The notes below the pieces were generated by a model that had not been told where the DNA came from, made no database searches, and saw only the letters and a program-made list of their open reading frames with translations. A stretch of 40,664 bases of DNA. Origin: an uncultured bacterium (GTDB lineage: Bacteria; Cyanobacteriota; Vampirovibrionia; Gastranaerophilales; Gastranaerophilaceae). Both the position numbers and the translations under genes were made by a program. Shown here piece after piece: positions 3,097 through 27,210 of the stretch. Each line of letters opens with the position of its first letter. The first letter of the stretch is position 1. The stretch lies in contig USHE01000001.1 in assembly GCA_900554385.1 (NCBI GenBank), positions 1-40,664 of the forward strand. Direction: 5' to 3'.

Positions 3097-4182
3097 ATGT
3101 CAATTGGTTTTGATTCAGGGTGTAATAATATAAATTTTCAAGGCCGCTATAATTTAAGTAATTACAAAGGTTGCTTAAAAGGCGGAGCAATCGGTGATGC
3201 TCTCGGATGGCCGATAGAATTTCACAGGCTGGCTGATATAAAACGCAAATATGGTCCGAACGGAATTGATGATTTGGTTTTAAACAGCAAAGGCAAAGCT
3301 GAGATTACTGATGATACCCAGATGACAATGTTTACGGCTGACGGACTTATAAAATCAGCACTTAAAAAACTTAATTTGTCTGAAATGCCGGATATGGAAG
3401 ATGTATTCAAATCTTATAAACTCTGGTTAAATACTCAATTTGGCAAAGCTCCAACAAAGAATGAGGGGTGGATTAGCGGGTTGCGGAGTTTATATGCAAC
3501 AAGAGCGCCGGGAAATACGTGTATTTCTGCTATTCGGAGTAATAATCCGGGCAGTATCGCAAAAGCAATAAATAACAGTGCCGGCTGCGGAGGTGTTATG
3601 AGGGTTGCTCCGGCAGGTTTAATGTACAAAGATAATCCTAAATTAGCTTTTAAAGTTGGAGCAGAATGTGCAGCATTAACTCATAGTCATCCGCGCGGAT
3701 ATCTTCCTGCAGGAGTTTTAAGTGAAATGATTGCACACATTGTGAGTGGAAAAAATATTGAAGGTGCTGTTTCTGATACTATGAAAACTCTTAAAACATA
3801 CAGCGGGCATGAGCCTGTTTCTATGTTAATGGAGAAGGCTCAAAGACTTGCAAAATCAAATACAAATCCGTCAGATGCTATAAACGAACTCGGTGAAGGC
3901 TGGGTGGGCGATGAAGCAATTGCAATTGCTTCATATTGTGCGTTGAAAGAACCGAAAGATTTTGTCAAAGCTGTTAAAATGGCGGTAAATCATAACGGAG
4001 ATAGCGATAGTACCGGTGCAATTCTCGGGAATATTCTCGGAGCAGAACTCGGGGTTGAAAAAATTCCGTCCAAATGGGTTAAAAATGTTGAATTGAGTGA
4101 TGAACTTGGACAGCTTGCAAAAGACTTGTTTGTTAAACCGCAAGATATTGAAAATTCAGTAACAAGGTATCCGATAGATTAA
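3097..4182 (+). CDS. ADP-ribosylglycohydrolase (DraG/ARH family) with a ~25-aa N-terminal extension
   Basis: Family motifs GAIGDALGWPIEF, ITDDTQMTMFTADGL and NHNGDSDSTGAILGNILGA (di-metal-binding Asp/Thr clusters). RBS aggaga lies 6 nt upstream of the ATG. Confidence 0.9.
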   Translation: MSIGFDSGCNNINFQGRYNLSNYKGCLKGGAIGDALGWPIEFHRLADIKRKYGPNGIDDLVLNSKGKAEITDDTQMTMFTADGLIKSALKKLNLSEMPDMEDVFKSYKLWLNTQFGKAPTKNEGWISGLRSLYATRAPGNTCISAIRSNNPGSIAKAINNSAGCGGVMRVAPAGLMYKDNPKLAFKVGAECAALTHSHPRGYLPAGVLSEMIAHIVSGKNIEGAVSDTMKTLKTYSGHEPVSMLMEKAQRLAKSNTNPSDAINELGEGWVGDEAIAIASYCALKEPKDFVKAVKMAVNHNGDSDSTGAILGNILGAELGVEKIPSKWVKNVELSDELGQLAKDLFVKPQDIENSVTRYPID

Positions 4183-4496
4183 TCTTTTTTCTCCGGATTA
4201 TCTTTGATGACTTTATATCTTCCTTCGGCTTTAAGTTTACTTAAATATTCATTTTCTTCTTTTAATGTCATTGTTTTCATTTTTTCAATATCTTCCGGAA
4301 AAAATTCTATTTTTTGATATTTGAATTCTAAATTGTTGCAGTCACTTGGGTATGGCTGTTTTGTATTTTTTACGGAATCTTTCGCAGTCGAACGTTCAAA
4401 GGTGTCCGGCTGCTGTTCTTTTAATTTATTCCATTTTGCTTTTTTAATTTTTTTAGGTAATTGTATATTGTTTATAGATGTAATTTTTTTTATCAT
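4179..4496 (-). CDS. Small protein, paralog B (105 aa), unknown family. Second gene downstream of the giant ART protein.
   Basis: SD aaagga upstream. The C-terminal ~55 aa (YPSDCNNLEFKYQKIEFFPEDIEKMKTMTLKEENEYLSKLKAEGRY) are near-identical to the 71-aa ORF just upstream. The N-terminus is basic. Confidence 0.7.
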   Translation of the reverse strand: MIKKITSINNIQLPKKIKKAKWNKLKEQQPDTFERSTAKDSVKNTKQPYPSDCNNLEFKYQKIEFFPEDIEKMKTMTLKEENEYLSKLKAEGRYKVIKDNPEKKD

Positions 4497-4507
4497 AAGC
4501 CCATCCT

Positions 4508-4723
4508 TTAGTTATCTTCGTTTTCATCATCATAAACTACAACGTAACGCCCTTCGGCTTTAAGTTTACTTAGATATTCGTTTTCTTCTTTTAAAGTCAT
4601 GTGCTTCATTTTTTCTACGTCATCCGGAAAAAATTCTATCCTTTGATATTTAAATTCCAGATTGTCGCAATCGCTTGGATATTCTTGTGCTTTTTCTTCA
4701 TTATTATTTTCGTTATCAGTCAT
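4508..4723 (-). CDS. Small protein, paralog A (71 aa), unknown family. It lies immediately downstream of the giant ART protein.
   Basis: SD gaaagga upstream. It starts 12 nt after the toxin stop. Core sequence EYPSDCDNLEFKYQRIEFFPDDVEKMKHMTLKEENEYLSKLKAEGRY with acidic termini. Confidence 0.7.
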   Translation of the reverse strand: MTDNENNNEEKAQEYPSDCDNLEFKYQRIEFFPDDVEKMKHMTLKEENEYLSKLKAEGRYVVVYDDENEDN

Positions 4724-4735
4724 TTTTTATCCTTT

Positions 4736-7700
4736 CTAGTTAGATACAGAACCTTTCAATACCCAGTGTCCATTTTTAAAGTCTATATCAATAATATTAA
4801 TATTGGAATCTTTCTGTAGTAAAAATTCACATTCGCCCTGGTTGTGTCCTTTTACGTTTACACCCTCAAGGAATACTCCCTTAGCTCCTTTTGGGACATT
4901 AAGTTCCCAGTGAATTGAACCTGACCAGACATTAGGGTCAAATGATGTTGACATAAAGCGTTCCTGTGTTGCAGTGAGGTTACCTTTTTTAACCATATTT
5001 TTAACTTTTTCGATTAGAGTATCATCGCCGGTTTGATTGAAGTGGGCAACCGCTTGTGCCATAGCTTTATCCAAAGTTTGTCCGTTAGGGAGTTTTACGG
5101 ATGCAAGCACTTCCGGCCCTTCTTTACGATATACTTTAATTGGTTCTTTTATAACCTGAGTATTAAGGTATGCCTGAACATTATCTATTTCTTGCTTGAT
5201 TTTTGGATTAAGCGGTGTATTGTGTTTCTTTAAATTTGTTAATCCGTTATTTATATCCATATAACCGCTGCCTTTGTAAAAAGCTAAGCTTCCAATCTGG
5301 TTGGCTGTAATCGGTTTTGTCTGTGCAATATTAAATACCGCATCCCAGTGAGCAGGTGTTAAATTGTTGAGACCAAATATCTGGCTGTTTTCAATGTTTC
5401 TGTATAACTGTATAAGAGCGTTCATATCTTTTTGCCATAGACCGATATACTTACCTCCATCCATATTAATCATTTTTGTTATTTTTTGAATATCTAGAGG
5501 GGTGAGAGGTTTTTCTATTTTGCTTATTATACTAGAACCGTAAGAACCGTAAGCGTTATGGTATTGCTGTTTGGTTGCATCGTCAAGTTTTTTCGTGTAA
5601 TTACCATAAGAATCTTGAACAAAGTTGTTCTTAACCAGCAGATTATTAACCTGAACTGCGCTTAATTGCTGTACTTTAGGGGTAGGGTTAAGAGCTTTTA
5701 GGTATTTTTCTTTTGCATCTATCTTATTAAGTAAATTTTCTTTTATCTTTTTATTTGTAGTGAATTGGAGAGCTTGTTTTATGTCGATTAAGTCTTCAGT
5801 TTGTTTGGTAAATGTAATCATTTTTTCAATGGTTGAATGCTTAATATCTGTCATATAATCAAGCATGGACTTATTGCCTTGAGGGGTTGCTTTAATTTCC
5901 TCAAGCATACTTTTTAGGAATTTCTTTCTCTTAAGCAATGCCTCTTTATACTGGGTAAGTCCCATATCGTCTAAGAGTTGTGTGATTGCAGAATCTTTCA
6001 GACTGACAGCTTTGTTCAATGATTTTATCATATCTTCACGTGTCATGTGACTGAAAATCTCTGCAGATTTTGCGTTAATATACGGGTCTAAGAGGGTTGT
6101 TATTTCTGTTGGAATTGACGTATAAGGTTTGTTTGCACCCTGAGCGCGGTAATCAAAAGTTCCGCCTGCGTCAAGTCGGATAATTTTACCGTCAGGTGTT
6201 TTTAGCATATTATCATTGGCTAAGCCGACAACATCCCAGTTCGCAAGCAATACGTCCATACCAAAGCCTTCGTTGGCTTTTGCTGTTGCCTGTGTAACTT
6301 TTGATAATTCCGGTATATATTTACTTAATGTTCCGTTTGTTCCGTCTGCTGCCTTAAAACTGTTCATCTCTGGAACATTAAGTCCTGCCATTTCATATAA
6401 TTTTGTTGCAAGAAGTTCTGTTTTACCCTGTGCGCCTCCGAATTTTGCATAGAAAAGTTCGCCGGTTTCTTTGTTAATTACGTAATAACCTTTATTAGAA
6501 CCGCCTTGAGTGCCGTTTAATATTTCAAACTGGACTTGTTTTCCGTTAATTGTGAATGTTTCTGTTGTGATTGATGTGGCTTTTTTACGTAATTCATCTA
6601 TTTTTTTAGATATAACAGGATCAGAGTTTTTAGCTGTCGGAATATCTTTGACAATAGTTACATCTTTGTGGGCTTCTATTACAAGTTCGCCGTGCTTTTT
6701 GCTTATAATAATATGGTGGCTGGCTATTCCGTCTTCATGTTTACCTATTTGGTATTTAACGTCTGGATAGTGCGTTTTCGGGTTCGTACAGCCTATCGCA
6801 AAGCTTTCCCCTTCTTTTAGGTTATTTATTAAATCTTTTAGCTTTGGATCGTTCATGTCTATAGTAACATTACCCAGTTTTAATTGGTCTACCTTTGACA
6901 AATCAAGAATATAAGGTTTGTATGTTCCGATAGCACCTACTGGTAATTCGTGTCCGAGTAGTTCGGCTGTAATGACATTATCAATATTATTTAATTTTTC
7001 GTTAATTTTTTGGTTATATTCAGCCTGTGAAAGCTTTTTCCCTGGTTCAAGAATTGTTAAGTGGAAGTCGTCGCTTACGCTTTCAAGGTCTGCTTTTGCC
7101 ATAACTTTTGCTAGTGGCAGGTTATCGCCAAACATTTTTACTACATCATCGGCGGACATATTGCCTTTGTTAAATTCTTTAAACCAGTGGTGATTTTCTA
7201 TCAGGTTTAGGATTTTTTCTTTTGTTGATTGAGGGTAATCAAATCTTTCCAGAATTTTTTCTGCGTATTTTTTACTCAATACACTGTGTCCGGTATCTGA
7301 GACACCGCTTCCTTTAAACTGTTTACCCATATCGTGGAGTAATATACTCATTTTAAGGATTTCTTTCGATTCCTGGGCTAAATTCGCTTCATCCGCATAT
7401 TTTAGTGCTTTTTGAAGGTTTTGTAATGTGTGAGAATCAAGGCTGTATGAGTGAACTCCGTTTTGAGGTTTACCAATCATGAACGTAAATTCCGGAACAT
7501 CTTTTATAAATTTTTGAAGTTCTGAATTCATTATTGCATCCGGTAGTTGAATTTCGTTTTGTTTTGCGTATTTGTTTAAAATATCAAGGACATTTTTATG
7601 TGCCTCCGTTTTCGCTTTTGCTGAAAGGTTAGGTATATCAACGAGTTCAAACTTACTGCCTTCCTGCTGGAATTTGATATTCAAATCAGCCATAACAGCA

Positions 7701-10700
7701 TTTCGTTCATTTTCAGGTAAGCTGTCCAGTTGTTTTTTAAGGTCTTTCATGAAATTATCATGTGAATATTTCAGCGGAATGCCTTGTTTTCCGTATTTCT
7801 TAAGATTGAGGTTTTGTAAATTGCTATCAAATGCCGTATCTGTAATAAGTTTTGATTTCGGCTTTTGCGGTGTTATTGTGGGAGTTCCTTCTAATTCTAC
7901 GTTTTTGTTCGCAAAAGTGCTGTATAAATCTTCTGTTTGTCCGAATTTAGCATTATACATGTCGTATTCGTATTTTAACTCATTTAGTTTGTCAGGAGAT
8001 GTACATTCCTCAATTTGTTTTTTCAAATTTGCTGAGTAGACATCAGGTTCAGGAATTTTTGCACCTGCAGGATATTCTGAGAGTGAAATATATCTTTCGG
8101 TAATGACATTATTATTTTTGTCCAGAATTTGTTCTTTTCCTGTTTCAAAATTCTTTTCAACCTGCACATCATTTTTTAATTCTGAGGTTGATTTTATTTG
8201 ATTTTTTTTGTTTTTTACCGTAGATTTTGACGGGGTGGTGCTGTTTCCGGAATTATATTCATATACTGTAGTATCACCTGATTTGTTTTTGATTAAAATA
8301 GGTCTGTCATTTGTATCAAGTGTAATTTTTGTACCGTCTGTTGCGTGTAAAGTTTTTTGTCCTTGTTTATTTGTTTCGGTTTTTATAACCTCAAAATCCA
8401 GCGAATTACTATCTTCAAAGAACGTTATTTTTGAAGGTTTTCCCGGTGTTGGGGGTTCCGGTTTATTGGTACCGTTCGGTGAAGGTGTTGGGGTATCGTT
8501 AGGTTTTGGCGCAGGGGCAGGAATGTCTGCCTCTACTGTTGGTTTATGTGTTTTAATATGAGATAATCTTGAGATTAACAGACCGCTTGCAAAGTCAATA
8601 AATGCATCTGTTTCTCCGTAATTGTCACCGGCAACTTTTGTTACCCCGTAGGAACCTGCCATATTCAAAATTTCTTCAGCAATTTCATTTGCAAGGGCTT
8701 TATTTGTAATGCCAAATGACTGCATAAGTTTAGGCGCAAGTATGCTTGAAGAAACACCGACTCCGGCAAATGACATATTCATCAATGTTTTTCTCATTGT
8801 TTCTTCAACGCTTTTTTTGTCACTAAGGTTTACTGCTGCTGTTGCGATACCTGTATTTATAATTTGAGTTGCAATTTGGGCTTTTTTATTGGTATTTTGG
8901 AGTTTTGTTACGGTTGCTGCTGCTTTATATGCCTTGTTTGCCATATTCGCAATTTTTATACCTTTTGCGCCCCATTTAGCTGCGCTTACTGCAAGTCTTG
9001 CGGCTGCAAGCTGTCCTAAGCCCGGAACAAATTGCAGTGCGACTGTACCGGCAATTTCAAACGCTGCTGTTGTGATTGTATCTGTTAATTGCTGGTTTTC
9101 ATTGAATTTTATAACATCTTTTACTATATCATTTGTTCCATAAGCACTCTTGGTAAGGAGATCCACATCTTTTGTCATTTGGTCAAGAGTTTTTCCGTTC
9201 GCAATTTTATGGTATTCTCGCTGATATGTTTGTTTAGATTCTCTAATGAATGTGTCAAGCACAAATTTTTTATCACTGTCAGATGTGCTTTCAAGACCTT
9301 TGTTCTGTGCATAAGCGGAAATTAGTTCATCAATCTCTGCGTCTTGATAGCCGAAAGCTTTTTTAAGTTCACTTTTCATTTCTGAATAATTCATATTCTG
9401 AGTTTTCTTTTCAAGTCCTGAGAATACTTTATATGAACTGTCAAATGCAGTTGCTGCTTCAAGATTTTCTCGTGCGGTTTGTCTTGCTTGAACTTTTTTA
9501 GGGTCAAATTCTATGCCGAAGATTTCTTTGTATAATTTTTTAAATACTGCTTCATCTTTTTTCTCGGCGGCTTCTGCAAGTTTTTTCACGTCTGCTGCGT
9601 GAGTTCCGAGTTTTTTGTCCATATCATCAATGGTTGTGCAGCCGAAAAGTCCGCAGACCCAATCTCCTGTCTTTGCAGCCCAGCCTTCGGCTTCTCTGGC
9701 ATCTTTGTATGTTTTTTGTGCTTTCTTGTTATTGTCTACAAGTCCGCTGTCTTTTTCATTAACAAAGGTATTCATTGCTTCTGCTGTTGAAACCTCAGGT
9801 GAGTCTTTGCTGACTTTTGTACTTACGGTTGACCCTCGCAAAAAGTCAAGGGCTTTTTCCATTCCTGATGGATTAATACTCCCGAAAGAACTAAATTCTT
9901 CTTTCATGCTTTTGAGAAATTCTGTTCTTGCATGGTTTATATCGCTTTCTTTAACTCCGGCTTTTTTGGCTGCAATAGTCATTTTATCCAGAATGAAATT
10001 TAATGCTTTTTGTCTAGATGCAGGTGAAGAACCTACTTCACTGCAAATTGTGTCTATTAAAGAAGAATCTCCGCTATTTTTCTCTACAACTTTTTCATAA
10101 TTATCCAGTACTTGAATAATATTTTCTTCAGTAATTCGGTTTAACTGGCTTTGGAAAGCTTGTTTCCCTACTGCTGCCGCATTATCATCACATGCTTTAT
10201 AGAGATTTTCGGCAATATCTTTTGCTTCTTTGTTTATTCTTATCTTTTTATTTATTTCTTTAATTTCTTTTTGTCTGTTTGTAATTCTATTGTACGTTTC
10301 ATCAGAAACTCCGGCAATAACTTTTTTGCCTTGAAGTTCTCCGTTTTTTACGTTCGGGTTATGCTTTTTGAGTTCTTCAACGCGAAGCTGCATTTCTCGA
10401 TCTGAAGGGTTTTCGTTGCCTTCTTGTTTGAAAAGTTGTTTTGCCAGTGCTTCAAATGTTTTTTGTCCTGCTGTAAAGGTTATGGTTTTTCTATTTGCAG
10501 CTTCATCACGAAGTCGTTTATCTTCTTCTTCTTTTTGCTCACGTTCAATCGCATCTTTTGTGTAATCTGCAATAGTTTCTTCTTTACTTTTTCTTCCTCG
10601 CAAAGCCATATCGTCGGCTTCTAATTCTCCGGGAATTTTAATTTCTTCACCGACAATAAAATATTTTGAATTTCCTTTTGTCTTAATTTTTTCTTCATTA

Positions 10701-11779
10701 AGTTTTTCAATTTCTTCCGGAGTTATGCCGAATTTTTTAGCAATTGCGTTTATGCTTTCGCCGTTTTGAACAATAATTATCGTATTGCCTTCTCCGTCGT
10801 ATTCGACTTGATAGGTTTCTCCGTTAATAGTTTTTGTTTGTCTTAATTTGTTTCCTTCTTTATTATAGGTGTTTTCTGTTATGTTTCCATTTTCGTCGAC
10901 TATAGTTTCTGTTGAAATTCCGTCTTCGTTTTGTTGTAGTTTATGGGTTGATTGAACTTCATTACCTTGTTTGACGGTTGTTATTGTTGTTGTACCCTGT
11001 GTGGTTGTTTCTGTTACAGTTCCGTCTTCGTTGTATTGGTATTGGGTAATTTTTTTATCTGCAGGAGATGTTCCGTTTTCAACTTTTTGTGTTAGCTGTT
11101 CTCCATTTGAGGTTATTTGATAAGTTTTGCTTCCCGTGCTGTTTTGTACAACCCTTGTTTTAGCCGTACCGTCTTCATAATTAATAGTTTCTGTGCCATT
11201 ATTATTTGCTAACGTTTTTACTGTTTTCTTCGGCTTGTTATTTTCATAAACCGTTTTTATTGCGTTTCCATCATTGTCAAAATATTCCTGTGAAATAATA
11301 TTGTTGTTTTTATCATAGATGGATGTTTGGTTATCTTTTATTATGGTAGTTTTTTCTTCATTCTGATTGTATTGTTCGATTGTTCCGTCATTATATTCTG
11401 TTTGGATAATTTTGTTGCCATTATCTTCAAATGTTGTAGAGTTCTTTATATTTTGGCTGTTGTTATTAATGTTGCCTAGAAAACTAAATAAATCTTCTTT
11501 TGTGACAGTTGTGTCATTTCCTTTAAAGAGTGCATCAATAAATTTTTTAGCTTCTCTATTTGAAAGGTTAGTATTTTTAGCATACTCCTGAAGCATACTT
11601 TTTAGATTTGCAACTTCTTTATCCTCAAGAATATTGTTTCCATTATCAAGAGCATCAAAAATAGCAAGCAGTTTCTCATCTTTTATTTGTTCTCTTTTAA
11701 AACCACCTTTTAAATTAGTTAAATCTATTTTTCCAGACTTACCCTTGTTCAATGAAAAATTGCTGTAGTCCTTACTCAT
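4736..11779 (-). CDS. Giant multidomain protein (2347 aa). Order of elements: YD-like repeats, LysM, long helical region, Gly/Ala-rich hydrophobic segment, Pro-rich linker, HD phosphohydrolase, possible FHA, atypical kinase-like domain, C-terminal ADP-ribosyltransferase.
   Basis: Uninterrupted 7-kb ORF with SD gaaagg upstream and no N-terminal signal peptide. Domain motifs are listed in the sub-features below. Confidence 0.9.
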   Translation of the reverse strand: MSKDYSNFSLNKGKSGKIDLTNLKGGFKREQIKDEKLLAIFDALDNGNNILEDKEVANLKSMLQEYAKNTNLSNREAKKFIDALFKGNDTTVTKEDLFSFLGNINNNSQNIKNSTTFEDNGNKIIQTEYNDGTIEQYNQNEEKTTIIKDNQTSIYDKNNNIISQEYFDNDGNAIKTVYENNKPKKTVKTLANNNGTETINYEDGTAKTRVVQNSTGSKTYQITSNGEQLTQKVENGTSPADKKITQYQYNEDGTVTETTTQGTTTITTVKQGNEVQSTHKLQQNEDGISTETIVDENGNITENTYNKEGNKLRQTKTINGETYQVEYDGEGNTIIIVQNGESINAIAKKFGITPEEIEKLNEEKIKTKGNSKYFIVGEEIKIPGELEADDMALRGRKSKEETIADYTKDAIEREQKEEEDKRLRDEAANRKTITFTAGQKTFEALAKQLFKQEGNENPSDREMQLRVEELKKHNPNVKNGELQGKKVIAGVSDETYNRITNRQKEIKEINKKIRINKEAKDIAENLYKACDDNAAAVGKQAFQSQLNRITEENIIQVLDNYEKVVEKNSGDSSLIDTICSEVGSSPASRQKALNFILDKMTIAAKKAGVKESDINHARTEFLKSMKEEFSSFGSINPSGMEKALDFLRGSTVSTKVSKDSPEVSTAEAMNTFVNEKDSGLVDNNKKAQKTYKDAREAEGWAAKTGDWVCGLFGCTTIDDMDKKLGTHAADVKKLAEAAEKKDEAVFKKLYKEIFGIEFDPKKVQARQTARENLEAATAFDSSYKVFSGLEKKTQNMNYSEMKSELKKAFGYQDAEIDELISAYAQNKGLESTSDSDKKFVLDTFIRESKQTYQREYHKIANGKTLDQMTKDVDLLTKSAYGTNDIVKDVIKFNENQQLTDTITTAAFEIAGTVALQFVPGLGQLAAARLAVSAAKWGAKGIKIANMANKAYKAAATVTKLQNTNKKAQIATQIINTGIATAAVNLSDKKSVEETMRKTLMNMSFAGVGVSSSILAPKLMQSFGITNKALANEIAEEILNMAGSYGVTKVAGDNYGETDAFIDFASGLLISRLSHIKTHKPTVEADIPAPAPKPNDTPTPSPNGTNKPEPPTPGKPSKITFFEDSNSLDFEVIKTETNKQGQKTLHATDGTKITLDTNDRPILIKNKSGDTTVYEYNSGNSTTPSKSTVKNKKNQIKSTSELKNDVQVEKNFETGKEQILDKNNNVITERYISLSEYPAGAKIPEPDVYSANLKKQIEECTSPDKLNELKYEYDMYNAKFGQTEDLYSTFANKNVELEGTPTITPQKPKSKLITDTAFDSNLQNLNLKKYGKQGIPLKYSHDNFMKDLKKQLDSLPENERNAVMADLNIKFQQEGSKFELVDIPNLSAKAKTEAHKNVLDILNKYAKQNEIQLPDAIMNSELQKFIKDVPEFTFMIGKPQNGVHSYSLDSHTLQNLQKALKYADEANLAQESKEILKMSILLHDMGKQFKGSGVSDTGHSVLSKKYAEKILERFDYPQSTKEKILNLIENHHWFKEFNKGNMSADDVVKMFGDNLPLAKVMAKADLESVSDDFHLTILEPGKKLSQAEYNQKINEKLNNIDNVITAELLGHELPVGAIGTYKPYILDLSKVDQLKLGNVTIDMNDPKLKDLINNLKEGESFAIGCTNPKTHYPDVKYQIGKHEDGIASHHIIISKKHGELVIEAHKDVTIVKDIPTAKNSDPVISKKIDELRKKATSITTETFTINGKQVQFEILNGTQGGSNKGYYVINKETGELFYAKFGGAQGKTELLATKLYEMAGLNVPEMNSFKAADGTNGTLSKYIPELSKVTQATAKANEGFGMDVLLANWDVVGLANDNMLKTPDGKIIRLDAGGTFDYRAQGANKPYTSIPTEITTLLDPYINAKSAEIFSHMTREDMIKSLNKAVSLKDSAITQLLDDMGLTQYKEALLKRKKFLKSMLEEIKATPQGNKSMLDYMTDIKHSTIEKMITFTKQTEDLIDIKQALQFTTNKKIKENLLNKIDAKEKYLKALNPTPKVQQLSAVQVNNLLVKNNFVQDSYGNYTKKLDDATKQQYHNAYGSYGSSIISKIEKPLTPLDIQKITKMINMDGGKYIGLWQKDMNALIQLYRNIENSQIFGLNNLTPAHWDAVFNIAQTKPITANQIGSLAFYKGSGYMDINNGLTNLKKHNTPLNPKIKQEIDNVQAYLNTQVIKEPIKVYRKEGPEVLASVKLPNGQTLDKAMAQAVAHFNQTGDDTLIEKVKNMVKKGNLTATQERFMSTSFDPNVWSGSIHWELNVPKGAKGVFLEGVNVKGHNQGECEFLLQKDSNINIIDIDFKNGHWVLKGSVSN
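4739..5302 (-). other. Domain: C3/VIP2/iota-type ADP-ribosyltransferase (ADPrib_exo_Tox-like), R-S-E class with E-x-E
   Basis: SLAFYKGSGYMDINNGL (the Y..IN..L helix). VYR (R2218, nt 5126-5128). FMSTSF (S-T-S, nt 4943-4951). ELNVPKGAKGVFLEGV. GECEFLL (E2316-x-E2318, nt 4826-4834). The order and spacing parallel C3: LYRG / YISTSL / KVAKGSKAGYI / GQLEMLL. Confidence 0.85.
6080..6577 (-). other. Domain: atypical protein-kinase-like fold (actin-fragmin-kinase / PI-kinase-like catalytic signature)
   Basis: GGSNKGYYVINKETGELFYAKF (Gly-rich segment plus Lys). MDVLLANWDVVGLANDNML (catalytic-loop-like; NWD at nt 6233-6241). IIRLDAGGTFDY (DxG Mg-binding-like). Confidence 0.5.
6644..6817 (-). other. Domain: possible FHA-like module just upstream of the kinase-like domain
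   Basis: FAIGCTNPKTHYPDVKYQIGKHEDGIASHHIIISKKHGELVIEAHKDVTIV loosely follows the FHA pattern iGR..d..l.d..iS..Ha.i....g.l.i.d..s.v. Confidence 0.3.
7055..7462 (-). other. Domain: HD-superfamily metal-dependent phosphohydrolase
   Basis: H...HD...H...D pattern: HSYSLDSH, ILLHDMGK (HD at nt 7331-7336), GHSVLS, LIENHHW, AKADLES. Confidence 0.7.
8429..8542 (-). other. Pro/Thr-rich linker
   Basis: PTVEADIPAPAPKPNDTPTPSPNGTNKPEPPTPGKPSK. Confidence 0.8.
8555..9082 (-). other. Gly/Ala-rich hydrophobic/amphipathic segment (candidate membrane-insertion or translocation region)
   Basis: TITTAAFEIAGTVALQFVPGLGQLAAARLAVSAA, IATQIINTGIATAAVNL, MSFAGVGVSSSILAPKLM and AFIDFASGLLISRL. These are small-residue zipper-like helices. 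Confidence 0.45.
10628..10780 (-). other. Domain: LysM peptidoglycan-binding motif
   Basis: IIIVQNGESINAIAKKFGITPEEIEKLNEE...YFIVGEEIKIPG matches the LysM consensus (Y.V..GDTL..IA.+YG....+L...N......l..Gq.l.IP). Confidence 0.8.
10775..11437 (-). repeat. YD/RHS-like beta-hairpin repeats (coding). A second short block lies at aa ~1118-1235.
   Basis: Recurring Y-x-x-(D/E/N)-G-(T/N) units: EYNDGT, YFDNDGN, INYEDGT, YQYNEDGT, VDENGN, TYNKEGN, VEYDGEGN. Confidence 0.5.
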
Positions 11780-11967
11780 ATTAACCTTTCTAAAAATTAG
11801 TCAATTTACACTTCTGGATATATAAACGGTTATTAGAGCTGCAAACTTTAGAAATTATGGATTTTGTTACAATTCTTTACGCTTGTAAATCAACACTCAG
11901 TTTGATAAGGTATTGACTTTATGCTAATCTAAATATGTAATAAAGAATTATATAATAGGAGTTTAAG

Positions 11968-12387
11968 ATGATAAAATGGAAAAAAGAATACTATCTTATC
12001 TTGGTTTCATTAATTATTTTATCATCACAATTATATATAATTATGATTTTTGAAGATTTCGCTTGTAATACTAAAAGCAATTCTTGTAAAGTTATTCAAA
12101 CAAATATTTTTGGAGCGAAAAATATTATCGATATCTGTAAATATTCAGATTTGGATTCTATTAAATATGAATATCGTCTCAGAACACGCGTTTCTCATTA
12201 CTCTCATTATATGTTAAAAGCCGTAACGAAACATAATGAGCATAAACTAATAACTACAAAAAGATTTTATAAATTCCAAGATTATTCAAAAATTATAAAT
12301 AACTTAAATGATAAAATACAAAAGCAGGAAAATTTCAGTTATAGATTTTGGGGCTTATCTAATAAGTATAAACATTTTTTTAGGTAG
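11968..12387 (+). CDS. Hypothetical small membrane-anchored protein (139 aa)
   Basis: SD taggag upstream. One N-terminal TM helix (YYLILVSLIILSSQLYIIMIF). No recognisable family. Confidence 0.55.
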   Translation: MIKWKKEYYLILVSLIILSSQLYIIMIFEDFACNTKSNSCKVIQTNIFGAKNIIDICKYSDLDSIKYEYRLRTRVSHYSHYMLKAVTKHNEHKLITTKRFYKFQDYSKIINNLNDKIQKQENFSYRFWGLSNKYKHFFR

Positions 12388-12631
12388 AAGCTGGGATATT
12401 CTCTTTAGCTAACTCATAGATGAAAAATTCGTGCGTGTTCGTTTATCCATTCCAGGTGAAGCGGACATAAATGTAATCCCTCCAACTCAAAGCCAACTGT
12501 TATTTTACAGCTAAAAGAAATGTATGTAAAACGACAGTTGTTTTGATTATTTTGAACAGGAAGTTTGAGTATTTATAGAAACTAGCAAAAAAAAATTTTT
12601 CGGGTTTTAGTAATCTTGTAAAGGAGATTTT

Positions 12632-13339
12632 ATGCAAATATATTCTAATACAAATAATTTCTATACGAATAACCAAAATTATAAAACTTTTTCAAAAAAT
12701 CAAACCCCAGTAGCATTTTGTAGCCAACAAAAGGTTTTGGATAATGTTTCAAAAGCGGCTTTAAAAGAAATGTATAAAGAAAAACTAAGAAATGCGATAA
12801 AAAATTGTGATGTAAAAGTACTTTTTGAAGCAGTAGGAATTAAAGCAAAAAAATATTTATTTGGGGAATATTATACCGTTTATGGATATGGCAAAGGTGG
12901 CGGCGCAACACATAATTTTTCTGAGCTTGGTGTTGATGAAAATAAATTATTCAAAAAGATAAAAAGGGTAAAAGGTATTCTTGATTTAAGAGAATCAAAT
13001 GTTGAAGATTTGGGTAATCTTAAGCGAGTAGATGGAAAAATTTTGATGTATCATGAGCAATGGCCTCCGAAAGGTTATGCTCGTATAGTGCTCTGGGATA
13101 ATGTAATAGTAAAACATTATTCAGCTCCTAGAGATAAACATCATTATTTCCCAAGTACCGACTCTTTACTTAAAGATAGTAATCTTTCTAGTCGTGCCGA
13201 TGATTTTTATCTTCCATCTACAGACTATCTACTTCGTAAAGATAATAGTCGTTTCACTTATGACTCTACTTTCTCTATGTTAACATATAATGATAGTGGT
13301 GAACTGATTAAAGTTCGACATTTTACAGGCGGAATATAA
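12632..13339 (+). CDS. Hypothetical protein (235 aa) with Asn-rich N-terminus and a short internal repeat
   Basis: SD aaaggaga upstream. Internal duplication YFPSTDSLLKDSN / YLPSTDYLLRKDN. No recognisable family. Confidence 0.6.
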   Translation: MQIYSNTNNFYTNNQNYKTFSKNQTPVAFCSQQKVLDNVSKAALKEMYKEKLRNAIKNCDVKVLFEAVGIKAKKYLFGEYYTVYGYGKGGGATHNFSELGVDENKLFKKIKRVKGILDLRESNVEDLGNLKRVDGKILMYHEQWPPKGYARIVLWDNVIVKHYSAPRDKHHYFPSTDSLLKDSNLSSRADDFYLPSTDYLLRKDNSRFTYDSTFSMLTYNDSGELIKVRHFTGGI

Positions 13340-13383
13340 CAAAAAGGAATATATTTTTACAAGTTTAAAAAGAGGAAAATTAA

Positions 13384-13743
13384 ATGGATTTAAATATTGC
13401 TAAATACCCTTCTAATAGCAGTTTTGGAAGTTTGAATATTAAAAAATCTGCTTATAAAGCTAAAGCAGGGGCACTATATATAAATTTTGATAAGGACAAG
13501 TTGGAAGAGTTGGCAAAAACGTGTAATATAAAAATTTCAGGTGGCAAGGAGTACATGGGGCTTTTTAGCTTAGATTATTTGAATATTACAGTTACCCAAT
13601 TAAAAAGAAGTCGAAATCCCTTTATAAGATTATTTAATATTGATGCAGTAACAGGTAAATTTGCCACAGAGGCCAGACTTGAAAGTACTACTTTAATTGA
13701 TATAACAAGACAATTAGTCAAGAAATTACAAAATAGATTGTAG
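13384..13743 (+). CDS. Hypothetical protein (119 aa)
   Basis: SD agaggaaa upstream. No recognisable family. Confidence 0.55.
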   Translation: MDLNIAKYPSNSSFGSLNIKKSAYKAKAGALYINFDKDKLEELAKTCNIKISGGKEYMGLFSLDYLNITVTQLKRSRNPFIRLFNIDAVTGKFATEARLESTTLIDITRQLVKKLQNRL

Positions 13744-13747
13744 ATAG

Positions 13748-14125
13748 ATAAGTCGGTTTGGCATATGTAAATCTGAAAATTTTTATGTAAATAAATTAGG
13801 TTTTAGGTCAGTCAAATATCTTGAATGCAAAGAACCCCATATATGTTTTTACAAAGACAATATTGAGATAATTTTACTTAATGCAAGTTCAAAAGTTAAG
13901 TCTAACAGAGAGTTATATGGTTATGGCTATGATGCATATTTATACGCAAATGATATCAAGCTTCTTGAAGATGAATTTAACTCCAAAGAGATAAAAATAA
14001 TAAAACTTTTACATTTTACTGATTATCAAAATCAGGAGTTTGTTATTGAAGATTGCGATGGACAATGGCTTGCGTTTGGGCTAAAAGAAAATAATTTTAT
14101 ATACATTTTCTGTAGCTTCAATTAA
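13748..14125 (+). pseudogene. VOC-superfamily (glyoxalase / bleomycin-resistance-like) ORF lacking a start codon and about the first 10-15 residues
   Basis: Open frame of 125 codons that is not in the supplied ORF track. It has no in-frame ATG/GTG/TTG. SENFYVNKLGF ... YDAYLYANDIKLLEDEFNSKEIKIIKLLHFTDYQNQEFVIEDCDGQWLAFG matches the VOC pattern (S..FY...LGF ... vdD.dal.....g......l.d..yG.rEf.v.DpDG..l.FG). An upstream in-frame TAG lies at 13745. Confidence 0.55.
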
Positions 14126-14427
14126 TTACTTTAATTTTACTTCCGTTTAAGTAATGTTTTAATGTTCTATTCTCAAACCAAGTGTTACTTTTTAAATTTT
14201 CATAGATTACTATTATTGTTGAATTTTGCCGATTAAGTCAAAATAAATTTATAGCATTTTAGAGTAAAAACTTCTGCATCTTTAAAATGGGCTAAATTTT
14301 TAACATCTGAGAATTTACACTTCCGACTTTCTAGTCTGTGTTTCCGACTGTTTTTTTCTGTTATTAAACTAAGTGTTATCTTACACCAAATTCCTAAACT
14401 ACCTGTTAAAATACAACTAGAATATAT

Positions 14428-14458
14428 AAAAGAATCCTTTAACATATTTGTTAAAGGA
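14428..14458 (-). terminator. Rho-independent terminator downstream of tRNA-Gln
   Basis: Perfect 9-bp inverted repeat tcctttaac (14435-14443) / gttaaagga (14450-14458) with a 6-nt loop. It is followed on the minus strand by ttctttt. Confidence 0.7.
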
Positions 14459-14476
14459 CTTAATTATCTTGAAAAT

Positions 14477-14548
14477 CTGGGGCGGAAGGATTCGAACCTC
14501 CGAATGCCTGGACCAAAACCAGGTGCCTTACCACTTGGCGACGCCCCA
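14477..14548 (-). tRNA. tRNA-Gln (anticodon UUG), no encoded CCA
   Basis: The reverse complement is TGGGGCG TC GCC AAGTGGTAA GGC A CCTGG TT-TTG-GT CCAGG CATTC GGAGG TTCGAAT CCTTC CGCCCCA G. It forms a full cloverleaf with a U1:A72 pair and discriminator G, and is very close to E. coli tRNA-Gln. Confidence 0.95.
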
Positions 14549-14590
14549 TTGTCGGGTACATTTATTATTCTATTTCATAAATATTGATTG

Positions 14591-15274
14591 TCAAGATTTT
14601 ATTTGTATAAATGGACTTTTTTCTTCTGCTCTTACCGTTTCTATGTTTCGCAAAAGGCTCTCAAATACCTCCAATACAAGGATTTCACTCTCGAAATGCC
14701 CTATATCAAATAGTATAAGCGGGCTTTCCAAGGCGGTGTGAAATTTTATATCCCCTGTGACAAGTGCGTCTGCTCCGTTTTGATAGGCTTCTTGTATAAA
14801 TTCAGCTCCGCTGCCTGCACAAAAGGCGATTTTTTTTATTGTTTTTATGTTCTTATTGTTCACATATCGTAAGTTTGGTGAAATTTTCGTAAGTCTTTTT
14901 AAGAATTCTTCGAGCGTAAATTCTTCCTCAACATATCTTAAATAATCTGAGCTTTCCGATAGTGTAAGTCCAAGTTTTTTTATTAATGTGTCAGTTGTTC
15001 CGCCAATAGTTCTGTCAAGGTTTGTGTGCGCACTGTAGGTATCAATATCCTGCCAGTTTAAAGGAACTTCAAACAGAGGGTGATGTGAGATTATCATGTC
15101 ACAGTTTTGTTGTTTCGCTTGAAGTACCACATCATCCGTGACGGTTAGGGCAAGCATGATTTTTTTTATATCCGTTTTTTGGGTTTCAACACAAAATCCT
15201 GAACAATCCCATTTTTCTGCAAGTTCAGGAGGTGCAAATTTTTCTATTGTGTTTATAATCTCGTATTTATTCAT
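14591..15274 (-). CDS. Nif3-like dinuclear metal-centre protein (YbgI/YqfO family, short form)
   Basis: FAPPELAEKWDCSGF, KIMLALTVTDDV, CDMIISHHPLF, TNLD and GHFESE motifs. Confidence 0.85.
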   Translation of the reverse strand: MNKYEIINTIEKFAPPELAEKWDCSGFCVETQKTDIKKIMLALTVTDDVVLQAKQQNCDMIISHHPLFEVPLNWQDIDTYSAHTNLDRTIGGTTDTLIKKLGLTLSESSDYLRYVEEEFTLEEFLKRLTKISPNLRYVNNKNIKTIKKIAFCAGSGAEFIQEAYQNGADALVTGDIKFHTALESPLILFDIGHFESEILVLEVFESLLRNIETVRAEEKSPFIQIKS

Positions 15275-16439
15275 TTATGTATTGTAGAATTTTTTGTGCG
15301 ATTTCTGATTTTTTTGCACGTTCAAATGTTTTGGTATTTCCGTTTTTGTTGAAAATTGTTATTTCATTGTAATCGCTGGAAAATCCTATGTCCTTGCGGG
15401 AAATATCATTTGCAATTAAATAATCACAACCTTTCTTTTGAAGTTTTTCTCTGGCATTTTCCAGTAAGTTTTCACTTTCTGCGCAAAACCCAACAATCGT
15501 TTGGTGAGTCTTTTTCTGACAAATACTTTTTAAGATATCAGGGTTTTTCACGAGAGTGAGTGTAATTTCGTCGCATGATGTCTTTTTTAATTTTTGTTCC
15601 GCTTTTTGTTTTACTCTGTAATCGGCGACTGCAGCTGCCATTATTACGTAATCGGCGGTATCAAATTCTTTTTCTATTTGGGTTTGCATTTCCAGAGCAG
15701 ATTTTACATTGATAATTTTATAGGGACGTTTTACATCAACTGTGGTAATTAATGTAACGTTATTTCCTTTGGTGAAGGCTTCATCTGCAATAGCAATTCC
15801 CATTTTTCCGGATGAGTAATTTGATATATACCGTACGGGGTCAATATCCTCTATTGTTCCGCCTGCGGTTATAAGATATTTTTTTGAATTTGATGAGCGA
15901 TTTAAAAGAATTTGAGTTGTTGTGTCGTAAATTTTTTCAAGCGAACACAATCTGCCTTTTCCCTCGTAACCGCAAGCAAGGAAACCGCTTTCCGGTTCAA
16001 GAATTTTGTAACCGTATGTTGAAAGCTTTTTTATATTTTCTTGAATAACATGGTTTTCCCACATATTACAGTTCATCGCAGGAGCTATGATAATCTGTTT
16101 TTTGAATGCGCACGCTATTGATGTTAATAGGTTATCGCAAATTCCTGAGGCTATTTTTGATATAGTATTTGCTGTCGCAGGTGCAATTATCATAATATCA
16201 GCTTCATCTGCGTAAGAAATATGCTCAGGTCGAAAATCCTCTACATCAAATTCCTCTACTCCAACTTTATTTTGGCTGAGGTTTCGAAGGGTTAGTTTTG
16301 TTACAAAATTCAGTGCATTAGGGGTACAAACAATCCGAACATTTGCGTGTTGGCGTTTAAACATTCTGACAAGTTCACAAATCTTGTATGCGGCAATTCC
16401 GCCGGATATGCCGATTAGGATGGTTTTCCCGCTTAGCAT
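15267..16439 (-). CDS. coaBC: Bifunctional phosphopantothenoylcysteine decarboxylase / phosphopantothenate-cysteine ligase
   Basis: GKTILIGISGGIAAYK (flavoprotein N-domain), PAMNCNMWEN, ITAGGTIEDIDPVRYISNYSSGKMG (CoaB), AAAVADYR. Confidence 0.92.
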   Translation of the reverse strand: MLSGKTILIGISGGIAAYKICELVRMFKRQHANVRIVCTPNALNFVTKLTLRNLSQNKVGVEEFDVEDFRPEHISYADEADIMIIAPATANTISKIASGICDNLLTSIACAFKKQIIIAPAMNCNMWENHVIQENIKKLSTYGYKILEPESGFLACGYEGKGRLCSLEKIYDTTTQILLNRSSNSKKYLITAGGTIEDIDPVRYISNYSSGKMGIAIADEAFTKGNNVTLITTVDVKRPYKIINVKSALEMQTQIEKEFDTADYVIMAAAVADYRVKQKAEQKLKKTSCDEITLTLVKNPDILKSICQKKTHQTIVGFCAESENLLENAREKLQKKGCDYLIANDISRKDIGFSSDYNEITIFNKNGNTKTFERAKKSEIAQKILQYINE

Positions 16440-20067: not shown

Positions 20068-23000
20068 ATGCTAGAAAGCATATCACAAATCAAAGATAAA
20101 GTTCATTCGTCAATGTATGAAACCGAAGGCAGAAAAACATACGATGTTGATAGTATCGTTGCCGAATTAAAGAAAGACGAAAAATTTAAGAATTTCAAAG
20201 AAAATGAACTTTATTCTTATGCATACGGCTTGATAGCGAACCATAATGCTCATGCGCTGAAAGGTGCATTGCAGAGCATGGGTTTTGATACAGGCAAACC
20301 TCAAGATCCTTTCTGGAGTCAGTATACCTATGAAGAAATCCTTAACATGGTTAATGACGGAGTTCAAGTGCCTCAGGAATTTATCGATTGGGCGTACACA
20401 ATGCAGGATTCTGATACCACGGCTTATCAGATAGAAGATTCAAGTGAAGACCCTAACGCTTATGACAATCTTGCTGGTGAAACAGGAAATATTGACCAGA
20501 GTGATATTCAAAAACGCGCTCAGGCTTTTGCTTCTAAAGCTCAAGCTCAGGAAAAACTTATTAACAATAAAGTTGAAGAAACAAAACCTATATTAAATAC
20601 GGTTCTGGCTGAAAAAAACGAATTGGAAAAAAATCAGAAATCAGCTTTAGAAAATCTTGCGTCTATGACTAAAGAGTGGAAAACTCTTGATAGAAAGTTT
20701 AAAAGCGGTACTCCTTTGTCTGAAGCCGAACAGAATAAGTATCAAGAACTTGGTTTAGCCTTGAATGACAGCAATAACGGTATTCTTTTGCAGACCAAAA
20801 AAGTTAGTGATGATATAGAAGAACTTATGACTCAGATTGATAGTATTGATATGCTATTAGGCGTTAACGAAAAAATTAACGCTGAAATTGAAGATATCGG
20901 TACAAGAATGTCTTGGTTTGAAGGTAATAAAAAGCATATTATCTTGCCAACAAACAATGGTAATCAAGTTACAGGGCTAAGTGCCGCATTCTATGTTGCC
21001 GCAATGGGTAATAATCTTGCTTACGATACAGGTTTGGCAGGTGTAAATCTGTTCTTTAATAATATGGAAGTTCAAAATCAACAGGAAATTCATATTAATA
21101 CAGCTGTCCAAACTCAAAAACAAGTAGATGTTGTGAATAATGCTGCAGACAATCAGGACGATAATCTAAAATATACAACCAACAAACAGTCTGAAAATAA
21201 AAACGACGATAATAAGACAGAACAAAACAACAATCCTCAAAATGGAGTTCAGCAACAGGAAACAGATGCAAATGAAATTATTAATCCTGAAAAAACACAA
21301 CCGAAAACCCCTCAGGCAGATGCAAAAGTTCCGGTACAAACAGAAGAACCGCTGATTTCTCAAGAAGAACCTGAAAATACACTTACAAAGGCTTTGAATT
21401 CTGAAAATAATCCAAAAACAAATGCTATAAATGCGCAATTCAACTCAAATGTTGCAGAAAATACTGACAATGCTCAAACTCAACAAGTTGCTGCAGATAC
21501 AACGGTTCAAACTTCTGCTCAAGCTGCCCAAACAACAGAAACTGAAGGTGCAGAAGATATTGCTGCTACAGATGAAGCCGGCGAAGTTACAGAAACTCCG
21601 GATACTTCTGTTGAAACAGAAGATCCGCTTAAAGCTGAAACTTCTCAAATGGTATCAGAATGTGAAAACAGAAATAATGCTATGGTTCAGGCTGAACAAC
21701 AAATTCAAGCTAAGGTTGAAGAAGTTAAGAAAATTAGAGCAAACAAAAGTAAAGATGATGCACAGCTTAAGAATGAATTGACAAAAGCTGTTACTGAATA
21801 CGATAAATTAGCACAAAAAGTTCAAAATGGTGAAACTTTATCAGATAATGAACAAAAAAGAGTAAAAGCATTAGAAAAAGCTATTAATGCAAAAAATGGT
21901 ACTATTATTACAAAAATTAAGGATAAAGTTACTGCATTAACAGGATTTGCGGATGCTTTAAATAATGATATTCAGCAAACTAAAGTTAATCAGGAGTTTG
22001 GTGAGCAGGCTGTTGCAAAAGGTAAAGAATATGCAAAAGCAACATTAGGCGATAGAGAATATCTTAAAGATTCAATGTTCGGTTTTGTTCATTTTAGTCA
22101 ACTTCCTAAAGAAAAGCAATATGATCTTCTTTATGGTAAAAAAGGTGAATCTGTTGGTCGTGACGCTATTGATAACGGAGAATTGCTTATCAGTAATGCT
22201 GCGGCTTCTCAGGAAAGATTAGCTAAGTCTTTACCTCTTGCAGGCTTTGCAATGAATTATTCGCAGGAACTCAATACTAAGCTTTCTGAAACTAACCAAA
22301 AGGTTAATGCTATAAAACAAAATCTTCAAGAGTCTGCAGAACAACAGGCAGATAATACCAATGGTCCTTCAAATGCAGAAGGCGAAAATTCTTCATCTAA
22401 GAAATCTAAAAAGAAAGATGAAGTTACCAAAGAAGATGGGCAAAAAATTGAGCAGCAAGGTAGAAAAGTTGAACAAGAAGGTAAAGAAGCCAAAAAAGAC
22501 GGACAAGATGCCAAAAAAGATAAACAAGCTACTGATAAACAAATTAAAAAAGAAACCGCGGCGTTAAAGGCTGATGAAAAGAGAATTGTTAATTATACTA
22601 AAGATTCTCAGCAAATTAACCAGCAATTTGAAGAAATGTCTATAGAGCTTGATGCTATTTTGGAAGCCAAAGCTCAAGCTTCAACAGAGCAGGAAAGTCC
22701 TGCTATGCAAGCAGGTCCGGCTCCTGCAAGAGCTTTAAATGCAAGAGGTGCTAACCCTAGAAGCGTTGGCTTAAATAATAGTGCGCCTGCTCAAAATATG
22801 AATGACAATATGTCTTCTCAGAATGATAATAATGCAAAACTTATGGCTATGGCTGCGGCTGTTCCAAATCTTGAAAAAAGATTGAAAACAAATGACAAAA
22901 CTATTAATACTATTTCAAAAGCGGCAACTGCAAAAAATAAAAAATTAAATAAGCTGTATAACTTGAAATATAAACAAGCTCAAGCTGACATGCGTGCTAA

Positions 23001-24367: not shown

Positions 24368-24389
24368 TCTATTCTCCTTTTATAATATA

Positions 24390-25007: not shown

Positions 25008-25022
25008 TAAACAGTTCCTTTG

Positions 25023-27208: not shown

Positions 27209-27210
27209 AT

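Follow-up and report, generated by a model that had tools for sequence, protein, structure and literature searches.

In polymorphic toxins of the CDI, Rhs and LXG type, a concept said to go back to Zhang, Aravind and colleagues, a constant N-terminus carries exchangeable C-terminal enzymatic heads, a downstream gene is specific to the head, and a genome can hold several paralogues. Here we describe a protein family with the same features, represented by a giant protein of 2347 residues encoded in a 40,664-nucleotide stretch of DNA from an uncultured gut bacterium of the Gastranaerophilales, a non-photosynthetic relative of the cyanobacteria (contig USHE01000001.1, positions 1 to 40,664; below, the window). 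Unlike the described polymorphic toxins, the giant protein lacks known trafficking modules, bears three heads in tandem instead of one, sits on a carrier that appears confined to Gastranaerophilales, and seems to be countered in part by an enzyme. We lean towards reading it as a polymorphic-toxin-like multi-effector whose producer is protected by cargo-linked genes and which is most likely directed against competing bacteria.

The family was collected from one genome per species of the Genome Taxonomy Database (GTDB). This gave at least 80 loci, nearly all of them in Gastranaerophilales/Melainabacteria gut genomes (human, ruminants, horse, koala, chicken), with two copies per genome in at least five genomes; the family as a whole therefore appears, judged by its sequence distribution, to be restricted to Gastranaerophilales. 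All 120 listed homologues carry residues 1 to ~410 at their own N-terminus, and a subset also carries residues ~500–1120. Past the Pro-rich linker (residues ~1076–1117) the family sequences diverge completely, and homology to P0029–P0041 ends at residue ~1118. Heads are exchanged on a constant carrier at this defined junction. The C-terminal heads of other members include calpain, FHA, RamC_N-type kinase, AvrB (AvrB_AvrC), EDR1/CTR1/ARMC3 peptidase-like, DnaJ and further domains, and the kinase and the ADP-ribosyltransferase (ART) found here each turn up separately in other members. The segment at residues 1118–1445 accompanies the HD–kinase–ART cargo and matched nothing in Pfam, PADLOC, PHROGs or PDB; in one homologue (P0027) the HD domain alone is deleted. 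The UniRef cluster is named after Candidatus Scatousia sp. In one metagenome-assembled genome at NCBI, these genes (locus tags KH301_00120/00125) are assigned to ‘Brachyspira sp.’, a label that the family distribution suggests is a mis-assignment.

Tre1 and Tri1, an ART effector of type VI secretion and its ADP-ribosylhydrolase immunity protein, offer a parallel for the genes next to the giant gene. As in that pair, an Arg-type ART stands beside a glycohydrolase of the DraG/ARH family (PF03747) that co-varies with it; this family, with DraG, ARH1 and Tri1, undoes Arg-ADP-ribosylation. Unlike Tre1, the ART is here the last domain of a 2347-residue protein without type VI context, and the glycohydrolase gene is convergent rather than co-directional, with two extra small open reading frames (ORFs), s1 and s2, in between (Table 1). 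The 3′ ends of s2 and the glycohydrolase gene overlap by 4 nt. Both small ORFs share a domain of ~50 residues (F.PED.EKMK.M..EE...Y..KL..EGRY) and a 132-nt direct repeat of 85% identity, and the basic N-terminal extension is always on s2 (L001, L006, L007, L009 and the window). Inside a locus the shared domain of the two is nearly identical, whereas between loci it has diverged, a pattern suggestive of concerted evolution or gene conversion. Neither matched Pfam, PADLOC or PHROGs. Giant gene, s1, s2 and the glycohydrolase form a four-gene cassette that also occurs around homologues of 50–61% identity, there among unrelated flanking genes.

Neighbouring genes were surveyed at 79 loci from GTDB species. 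The convergent glycohydrolase was present at seven of the seven loci with the full HD–kinase–ART cargo, as against one of ~70 other loci; the small ORF pair accompanied five of the seven, besides the window. In the P0042 lineage a gene for a dual-specificity/tyrosine-phosphatase-like protein of 167 residues is inserted between s2 and the glycohydrolase, on the strand of the latter; it would be an eraser dedicated to the kinase head. A different ORF of ~112 residues, unrelated to s1 and s2, lies directly after giant genes with a calpain-like head (L002, at 10885–11223; L013, L024, L029, L043, L045, L055, L068). All seven of its occurrences coincide with such a head, and they are exactly the seven calpain-headed giants whose downstream region is visible; its product is a candidate for the cognate immunity protein of that head. 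When the 1,021 flanking ORFs of the 79 loci were clustered, no gene family was common to all loci, and therefore no secretion apparatus is encoded alongside. As a separate observation, locus L009 contains a second, stand-alone PF03496 ART gene (339 residues, 14363–15382), 4 kb downstream of its ART-bearing family member.

An earlier note, made from the sequence of the window without database searches, had likened the giant protein to polymorphic toxins, and the comparison is borne out by two hallmarks: heads swapped on a constant N-terminus and head-specific downstream genes. Overlooked in that note were the glycohydrolase and the pair of small paralogous ORFs, and these neighbours give the strongest hint of function. 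Its description of an N-terminal part followed by C-terminal enzymatic cargo holds, as does its count of up to three catalytic heads in one polypeptide: by profiles, an AlphaFold2 (AF2) model of the kinase-like head searched with Foldseek, and alignments, all three are real and keep their catalytic residues. Every motif it quoted was located in the 2347-residue translation, namely ILLHDMGK (residue 1479), GHS (1497), ENHHW (1528), GGSNKGYY (1759), FYAKF (1776), LLANWDVVGLANDNML (1844), IRLDAGG (1867), YRKEG (2217), STSF (2277) and ECEFLL (2316).

The possibility that the ORF is a concatenation of separate genes, raised in the same note, is ruled out by independent full-length copies. NCBI and ENA both have the exact 2347-residue sequence. 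The cluster formed around it at 90% identity comprises 93 members, many of which are full-length at 2347 residues and come from separate assemblies, and ~26 more full-length homologues of 54–68% identity retain all domain junctions; an assembly chimera is thereby excluded. In public records the protein is named only ‘HD domain-containing protein’, and s1 and s2 are ‘hypothetical’. No paper in the library searched describes the family, and nothing relevant came up on LysM, ADP-ribosyltransferase or secretion in Gastranaerophilales or Melainabacteria, or on HipA in connection with Nudix. PDB, searched by sequence with the full-length protein and with its kinase and HD regions, likewise gave nothing useful.

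The ART is matched by the ADPrib_exo_Tox profile (PF03496), which covers residues ~2155–2333 at 78.1 bits, against a cut-off of 23.4, and 32 sequences all keep residues R2218, S2277, E2316 and E2318 unchanged. ARTs of the R-S-E clade that carry Glu-x-Glu are arginine-specific; the Glu-x-Glu of this head therefore indicates arginine as the acceptor. The closest solved structures are those of the binary actin-ADP-ribosylating toxins CDTa, iota Ia and C2I, with which it shares the PF03496 fold and the R, S-T-S and E-x-E signature, the alignment covering the Arg, Ser-Thr-Ser and Glu-x-Glu motifs. In contrast to these toxins, the giant protein has neither an N-terminal adaptor ART-like domain nor a B component, and the similarity to CDTa is weak (E 3e-6) and gives no information on the substrate.

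The kinase-like region had no match in Pfam or, by sequence, in PDB. Its AF2 model (predicted local distance difference test, pLDDT, 90; predicted TM-score, pTM, 0.88) has a bilobal kinase fold, and all 33 PDB matches found by Foldseek at E ≤ 1e-3 are kinases. Leading among them are H. pylori CtkA (3akl, E 2e-5), B. subtilis YabT and Vps34/PI3K, although the TM-score to the best structural matches is only ~0.43. Residues G1760 and G1764 of the Gly-rich loop, K1779, E1788, D1849 and N1857 are invariant in 18 diverse sequences, at least 90% of which also keep D1870 (one has Asn). We assign the head to the atypical kinases of the HipA/CtkA/PI3K-like kind, outside the HipA Pfam family: the query did not match the HipA_C profile (PF07804), and the matches of a few relatives were weak and below threshold. 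With CtkA, HipA and the PI3K-PI4K-like kinases it shares the Gly-rich loop, the Lys, the Glu, the catalytic Asp and Asn, and the equivalent of the metal-binding Asp. Unlike them, it has a distinctive signature, LANWD...N...R(I/L)DxGG, and belongs to a family habitually fused to ART or NUDIX domains.

The HD profile (PF01966) matches residues 1448–1535 at 41.3 bits, against a cut-off of 22, and 29 distinct sequences all keep the metal ligands H1482, D1483, H1498, H1530, H1531 and D1564. Its nearest profiles are those of Cas3-HD and Cas10-HD (E 7e-8 for this similarity) and of the HD domains of CCA-adding enzymes; from these neighbours the head could be either a nuclease or a phosphohydrolase. 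Between the HD and kinase-like domains lies a piece that had been read as a possible FHA module. It is indeed homologous to true FHA domains, since single-sequence phmmer searches link it, at E 7e-9 to 1e-3, to the FHA domains that Pfam recognises in paralogues, but the phosphothreonine-binding residues are lost: GC stands for GR and ASHH for SRxH, NG is absent, and the orthologues have the same changes. The query region itself had no hit to the Pfam FHA profile (PF00498). An hhalign result for this region was not used, both alignments having contained FHA sequences of the family.

The combination of kinase-like domain and ART, with which the earlier note was not familiar, proved to be widespread in bacteria and phages. 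A profile of the kinase-like domain, searched against 1.84 billion cluster representatives, retrieved 5,656 at E ≤ 1e-3 and 2,489 at E ≤ 1e-30. Many of the matches are proteins of 1,000–7,000 residues with up to five copies of the domain; one of them, a polyvalent-type protein of 7004 residues, contains the unit of kinase-like domain followed by ART, which is also found as stand-alone proteins of 500–650 residues. The fusion partners include three ART families (PF03496, PF01129 and DRAT), and very often the kinase-like domain is preceded by a NUDIX domain with the annotation ADP-ribose pyrophosphatase (P0145–P0187, from Paraburkholderia and others). In P0218 (3416 residues) the kinase-like profile matches five stretches, with a repeated linker, AFKNHPGSHDEQTHTTLFNLANPSQGREG, between the units; by direct reading of the sequence, each stretch is apparently followed by an ART-like segment. 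In four proteins of 1,100–1,400 residues (P0232, P0237, P0240 and P0243) the same cargo stands behind a different N-terminal part, made of a helical region and a very Gly/Ala-rich hydrophobic block that the middle-module profile does not match. These carriers are an analogous design, possibly a convergent one.

Among viruses, the best structural matches of the kinase-like domain are large phage proteins annotated as ADP-ribosyltransferases. In gp129 of Yersinia phage fHe-Yen8-01 (2146 residues, annotated as particle-associated), a C-terminal kinase-like domain of 38.6% identity (profile match E 1.8e-71) is followed ~200 residues further on by a PF03496 ART. This virion-associated ‘ADP-ribosyltransferase toxin’ thus resembles the giant protein in its order of kinase-like domain and C-terminal ART. 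It differs in its 1500 N-terminal residues, which are unrelated, in having no LysM, HD or FHA-like part, and in being encoded among particle genes; conversely, the carrier of the giant protein is absent from the phage and plasmid collections. Polyvalent proteins of mobile elements have been described (PMC5512222). The truncated kinase of those proteins has a His-Asp motif and was dismissed as a counterpart, showing no obvious correspondence to the kinase-like head.

The carrier begins with a peptide conserved throughout the family and an EF-hand-like domain, whose Ca-binding loop is degenerate in this copy; paralogues give genuine EF-hand Pfam matches at residues ~35–57. The YD-like repeats that had been noticed by eye are readable as eight units (residues 129–332), but profile support for them is marginal (RHS_repeat, 23.2 bits against a cut-off of 22). 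The LysM motif, also read earlier, is confirmed by Pfam, and its core VQNGES..IAKKFG is near-invariant across the family. The helical domain that follows occurs in part of the family, and a Foldseek search of PDB with the model of this middle module, which is confident only in part, found no fold match (best E 0.88). The Gly/Ala-rich hydrophobic block is present as had been described (residues ~884–1075), although its hydrophobicity is only moderate: the 19-residue windows with the highest Kyte–Doolittle means in the entire protein fall at residues 900–1016 and reach only 1.35. The block is predicted to be helical at low confidence (pLDDT 30–45); it is conserved, and distinctly more hydrophobic in distant family members. 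The carrier (residues 1–1125) matched nothing in IMG/VR, among GenBank phages or among PLSDB plasmids, and on this ground a phage or plasmid origin of the carrier was rejected.

Two known classes of toxin were considered and rejected. MARTX toxins are also very large polypeptides with serial enzymatic effector domains, a likeness that had been pointed out before. The resemblance does not hold further: the effector order and types are unrelated, there is no GGxGxD motif or RTX Pfam hit, no processing cysteine protease (no peptidase family was detected), and no adjacent type I secretion gene. The giant gene has as neighbours a fragment of an RND pump and an outer-membrane factor, then housekeeping genes, and these are not conserved in homologous loci. 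Membership of the Rhs toxins was dismissed in view of the small number of YD-like units, their confinement to ~210 residues of the N-terminal part, the marginal RHS_repeat match and the lack of a DPxGL motif. A Pfam and motif search for trafficking modules found no Sec signal, TPS, PAAR, VgrG, LXG, WXG, VENN or RTX module in the giant protein, in line with the earlier reading, and the N-terminus is hydrophilic, with no hydrophobic stretch near it that could represent the signal peptide already reported missing.

Table 1. Features of the giant gene, its neighbours and a related locus (positions in the window unless a locus is named; aa, residues of the giant protein)
Feature	Position	Strand	Basis or remark
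Giant ORF, multi-domain protein, 2347 aa	4736..11779	-	single open frame, ATG start
Conserved N-terminal peptide (LNKGKSGKIDL..LKGG.KRE), then EF-hand-like domain, aa 1-110	11450..11779	-	at N-terminus of every family member
Eight YD-like beta-hairpin units, aa 120-335	10775..11422	-	RHS_repeat 23.2 bits, TIGR01643 16.1 bits, motif count
LysM domain, aa 336-380	10640..10774	-	PF01476, E 2.4e-6, matched aa 336-366
All-helical domain, aa 500-883	9131..10282	-	contains conserved EGW.AK.GD.VCG.FGC; AF2 pLDDT 70-90
Gly/Ala-rich amphipathic to hydrophobic helical block, candidate membrane-interacting segment, aa 884-1075	8555..9130	-	hydropathy, AF2
Pro/Thr-rich linker, aa 1076-1117	8429..8554	-	direct reading of sequence; junction of head exchange
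First cargo segment, aa 1118-1445	7445..8428	-	beta-repeats, then helical part leading into HD domain
HD metal-dependent phosphohydrolase or nuclease domain, aa 1446-1603	6971..7444	-	PF01966, E 2e-10
Degenerate FHA-like domain, aa 1620-1715	6635..6922	-	single-sequence phmmer to paralogue FHA domains
Atypical kinase-like domain (HipA/CtkA/PI3K-like class), then helical bundle, aa 1720-2000	5780..6622	-	AF2, Foldseek, alignment
R-S-ExE ADP-ribosyltransferase (ART), aa 2101-2347	4739..5479	-	PF03496, E 7e-22
s1, 71-aa ORF, 12 nt past the stop of the giant gene	4508..4723	-	conserved in L001, L006, L007, L009
s2, 105-aa paralogue of s1	4179..4496	-	extra basic N-terminal extension; 11-nt gap after s1
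Convergent ADP-ribosylglycohydrolase, 361 aa	3097..4182	+	PF03747, E 1.5e-74
tRNA-Gln	14477-14548	-	
Phosphatase-like gene, P0042 lineage	L007 14854-15357; L008 13070-13573	strand of glycohydrolase	167 aa

Elsewhere in the window, the region between the giant gene and the tRNA-Gln gene (11780–14476) has a low G+C content, 27–30% against ~35%. Three orphan ORFs without Pfam hits lie in this region (139, 235 and 119 residues), the first with an N-terminal hydrophobic segment, and none of them is conserved beside homologues. A tRNA-linked island was considered and discarded, as the 3′ end of the tRNA-Gln gene is not repeated in the window. At 20068–23355 on the plus strand lies an ORF of 1095 residues with no Pfam hit, a low-complexity, coiled-coil and Gln/Asn/Lys-rich protein with a Gly/Ala-rich hydrophobic tail; as a second family member it was rejected, showing no detectable relation to the giant protein (best E 1.1). 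A signalling cluster occupies 23837–28929 on the minus strand and encodes a pentapeptide-repeat protein, two LuxR-type response regulators, a TPR protein and a GAF + HD-GYP-type (HD_5) protein.

Head swapping, head-specific downstream genes and an eraser locked to the ART lead us to the reading of a multi-effector toxin with protection of the producer. In this reading the N-terminal peptide, EF-hand-like domain, YD-like repeats, LysM, helical domain and Gly/Ala block make up a carrier, joined by the Pro-rich junction to exchangeable cargo, which in this copy comprises the HD phosphohydrolase or nuclease, the degenerate FHA piece, the HipA/CtkA-like kinase and the Arg-type (ExE) ART. The protein would leave the cell by a non-Sec route, LysM would hold it to peptidoglycan, and the hydrophobic block may aid passage of the cargo across the membrane of the target, most likely that of competing bacteria. 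The producer would be protected by the convergent glycohydrolase, which would take ADP-ribose off arginine, and in one lineage by the added phosphatase of dual-specificity type; s1 and s2 are probably binding-type immunity factors or chaperones for the FHA-like/ART end. The fHe-Yen8-01 protein, which has the same kinase–ART cargo and is delivered into another cell, also speaks for such a toxin.

Several observations weigh against this reading. Its main weakness is the export step: the protein lacks a signal peptide as well as any recognised domain for secretion or trafficking, and no apparatus gene is common to the 79 loci. The Gly/Ala block, in this copy, lies below the usual transmembrane threshold and its model is of low confidence. 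HD, FHA, kinase and DnaJ domains are typically cytoplasmic, which leaves room for an intracellular role. The closeness of the ART to actin-modifying toxins and the eukaryotic flavour of the AvrB, EDR1 and calpain heads count against a bacterial target. Finally, the ART-bearing relative at L009 has no adjacent glycohydrolase.

The question of the target leads to the first alternative, in which the same architecture is aimed at a eukaryotic cell, either of the host epithelium or of a protist or fungus in the gut. LysM would then bind chitin or other glycans of N-acetylglucosamine (GlcNAc), the ART would modify actin like CDT and iota toxin, the kinase would act like the secreted CtkA of H. pylori, and the glycohydrolase would merely clear accidental self-modification before export. 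Such a target would agree with the nearest solved relatives of the ART, all of them actin-ADP-ribosylating (CDTa, iota Ia, C2I), with the host-directed kinase CtkA as the best structural match of the kinase head, with the sibling heads (AvrB_AvrC, EDR1/CTR1/ARMC3 peptidase-like, calpain, DnaJ) and EF-hands, and with hosts that are all animal guts. However, toxins that endanger the producer or its kin are the ones typically accompanied by head-specific small downstream ORFs and an enzymatic antidote, and we know of no such partners for the classical actin ARTs. The similarity to CDTa is weak and uninformative on the substrate, and the use of the kinase–ART unit by phages of bacteria implies bacterial targets. 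We regard a eukaryotic target as doubtful. If the protein is not exported at all, it could be an envelope-associated intracellular scaffold for reversible signalling, or a suicide or abortive-infection effector, in which ART and kinase modify the cell's own proteins and the glycohydrolase (with the phosphatase) is the reverse arm, as in DraT/DraG. The missing signal peptide, the usually cytoplasmic HD, FHA-like, kinase and DnaJ domains, a writer and an eraser encoded side by side, and the resemblance of the HD domain to those of Cas3 and Cas10 would all fit. An N-terminal LysM and a Ca-binding EF-hand, on the other hand, make little sense in the cytoplasm, and wholesale head swapping with head-specific small ORFs is unlike the way regulatory systems evolve. 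PADLOC models match only the generic HD domain, and an NTPase or sensor module is lacking. We consider an intracellular role unlikely.

The phage relatives of the cargo could also mean that the giant protein is a domesticated or cryptic ‘polyvalent’ protein of a mobile element, packaged in a phage-like particle or moved with DNA, and that the locus is a remnant. The kinase-like-then-ART unit does occur in large phage proteins, giant virion-associated ones among them, as well as in the 7004-residue protein of polyvalent type, a concept described in PMC5512222, and one homologous locus adjoins integrase, AbiEii and Mrr genes. Yet the carrier is unmatched in the viral and plasmid collections searched, no phage or conjugation genes lie within 10–30 kb in the window or in L001, and the tRNA-Gln end is not repeated as an integration site would leave it. 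We consider this origin very improbable.

A further reading, made of two linked possibilities, goes beyond the toxin directed at competing bacteria and appears unlikely. In one, the N-terminal half would be a self-contained new device for export and translocation, formed by the EF-hand/YD/LysM part with the helical and Gly/Ala block, and the actin-type ART and the calpain, AvrB and EDR1-peptidase heads would act inside host or protist cells. In the other, the kinase-like head would not be a protein kinase in its own right but would take part in the ADP-ribose chemistry of the ART, for instance by phosphorylating the ADP-ribosyl mark or a product derived from NAD and so blocking its removal by erasers. 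This would account for the repeated fusion of the kinase-like domain to three ART families and to NUDIX ADP-ribose pyrophosphatases.

To our knowledge, the Gastranaerophilales are common but uncultured bacteria in the gut communities of humans and animals, whose interactions with other cells are essentially unknown, and we know of no toxin delivery pathway described for their phylum. If the polymorphic-toxin-like reading is true, the family would be the first recognisable weapon system of the Gastranaerophilales and would point to an undescribed export route. Beyond this order, the coupling of a kinase-like family of 5,656 representatives to ARTs and NUDIX domains makes a cooperation between phosphorylation and ADP-ribosylation directly testable.

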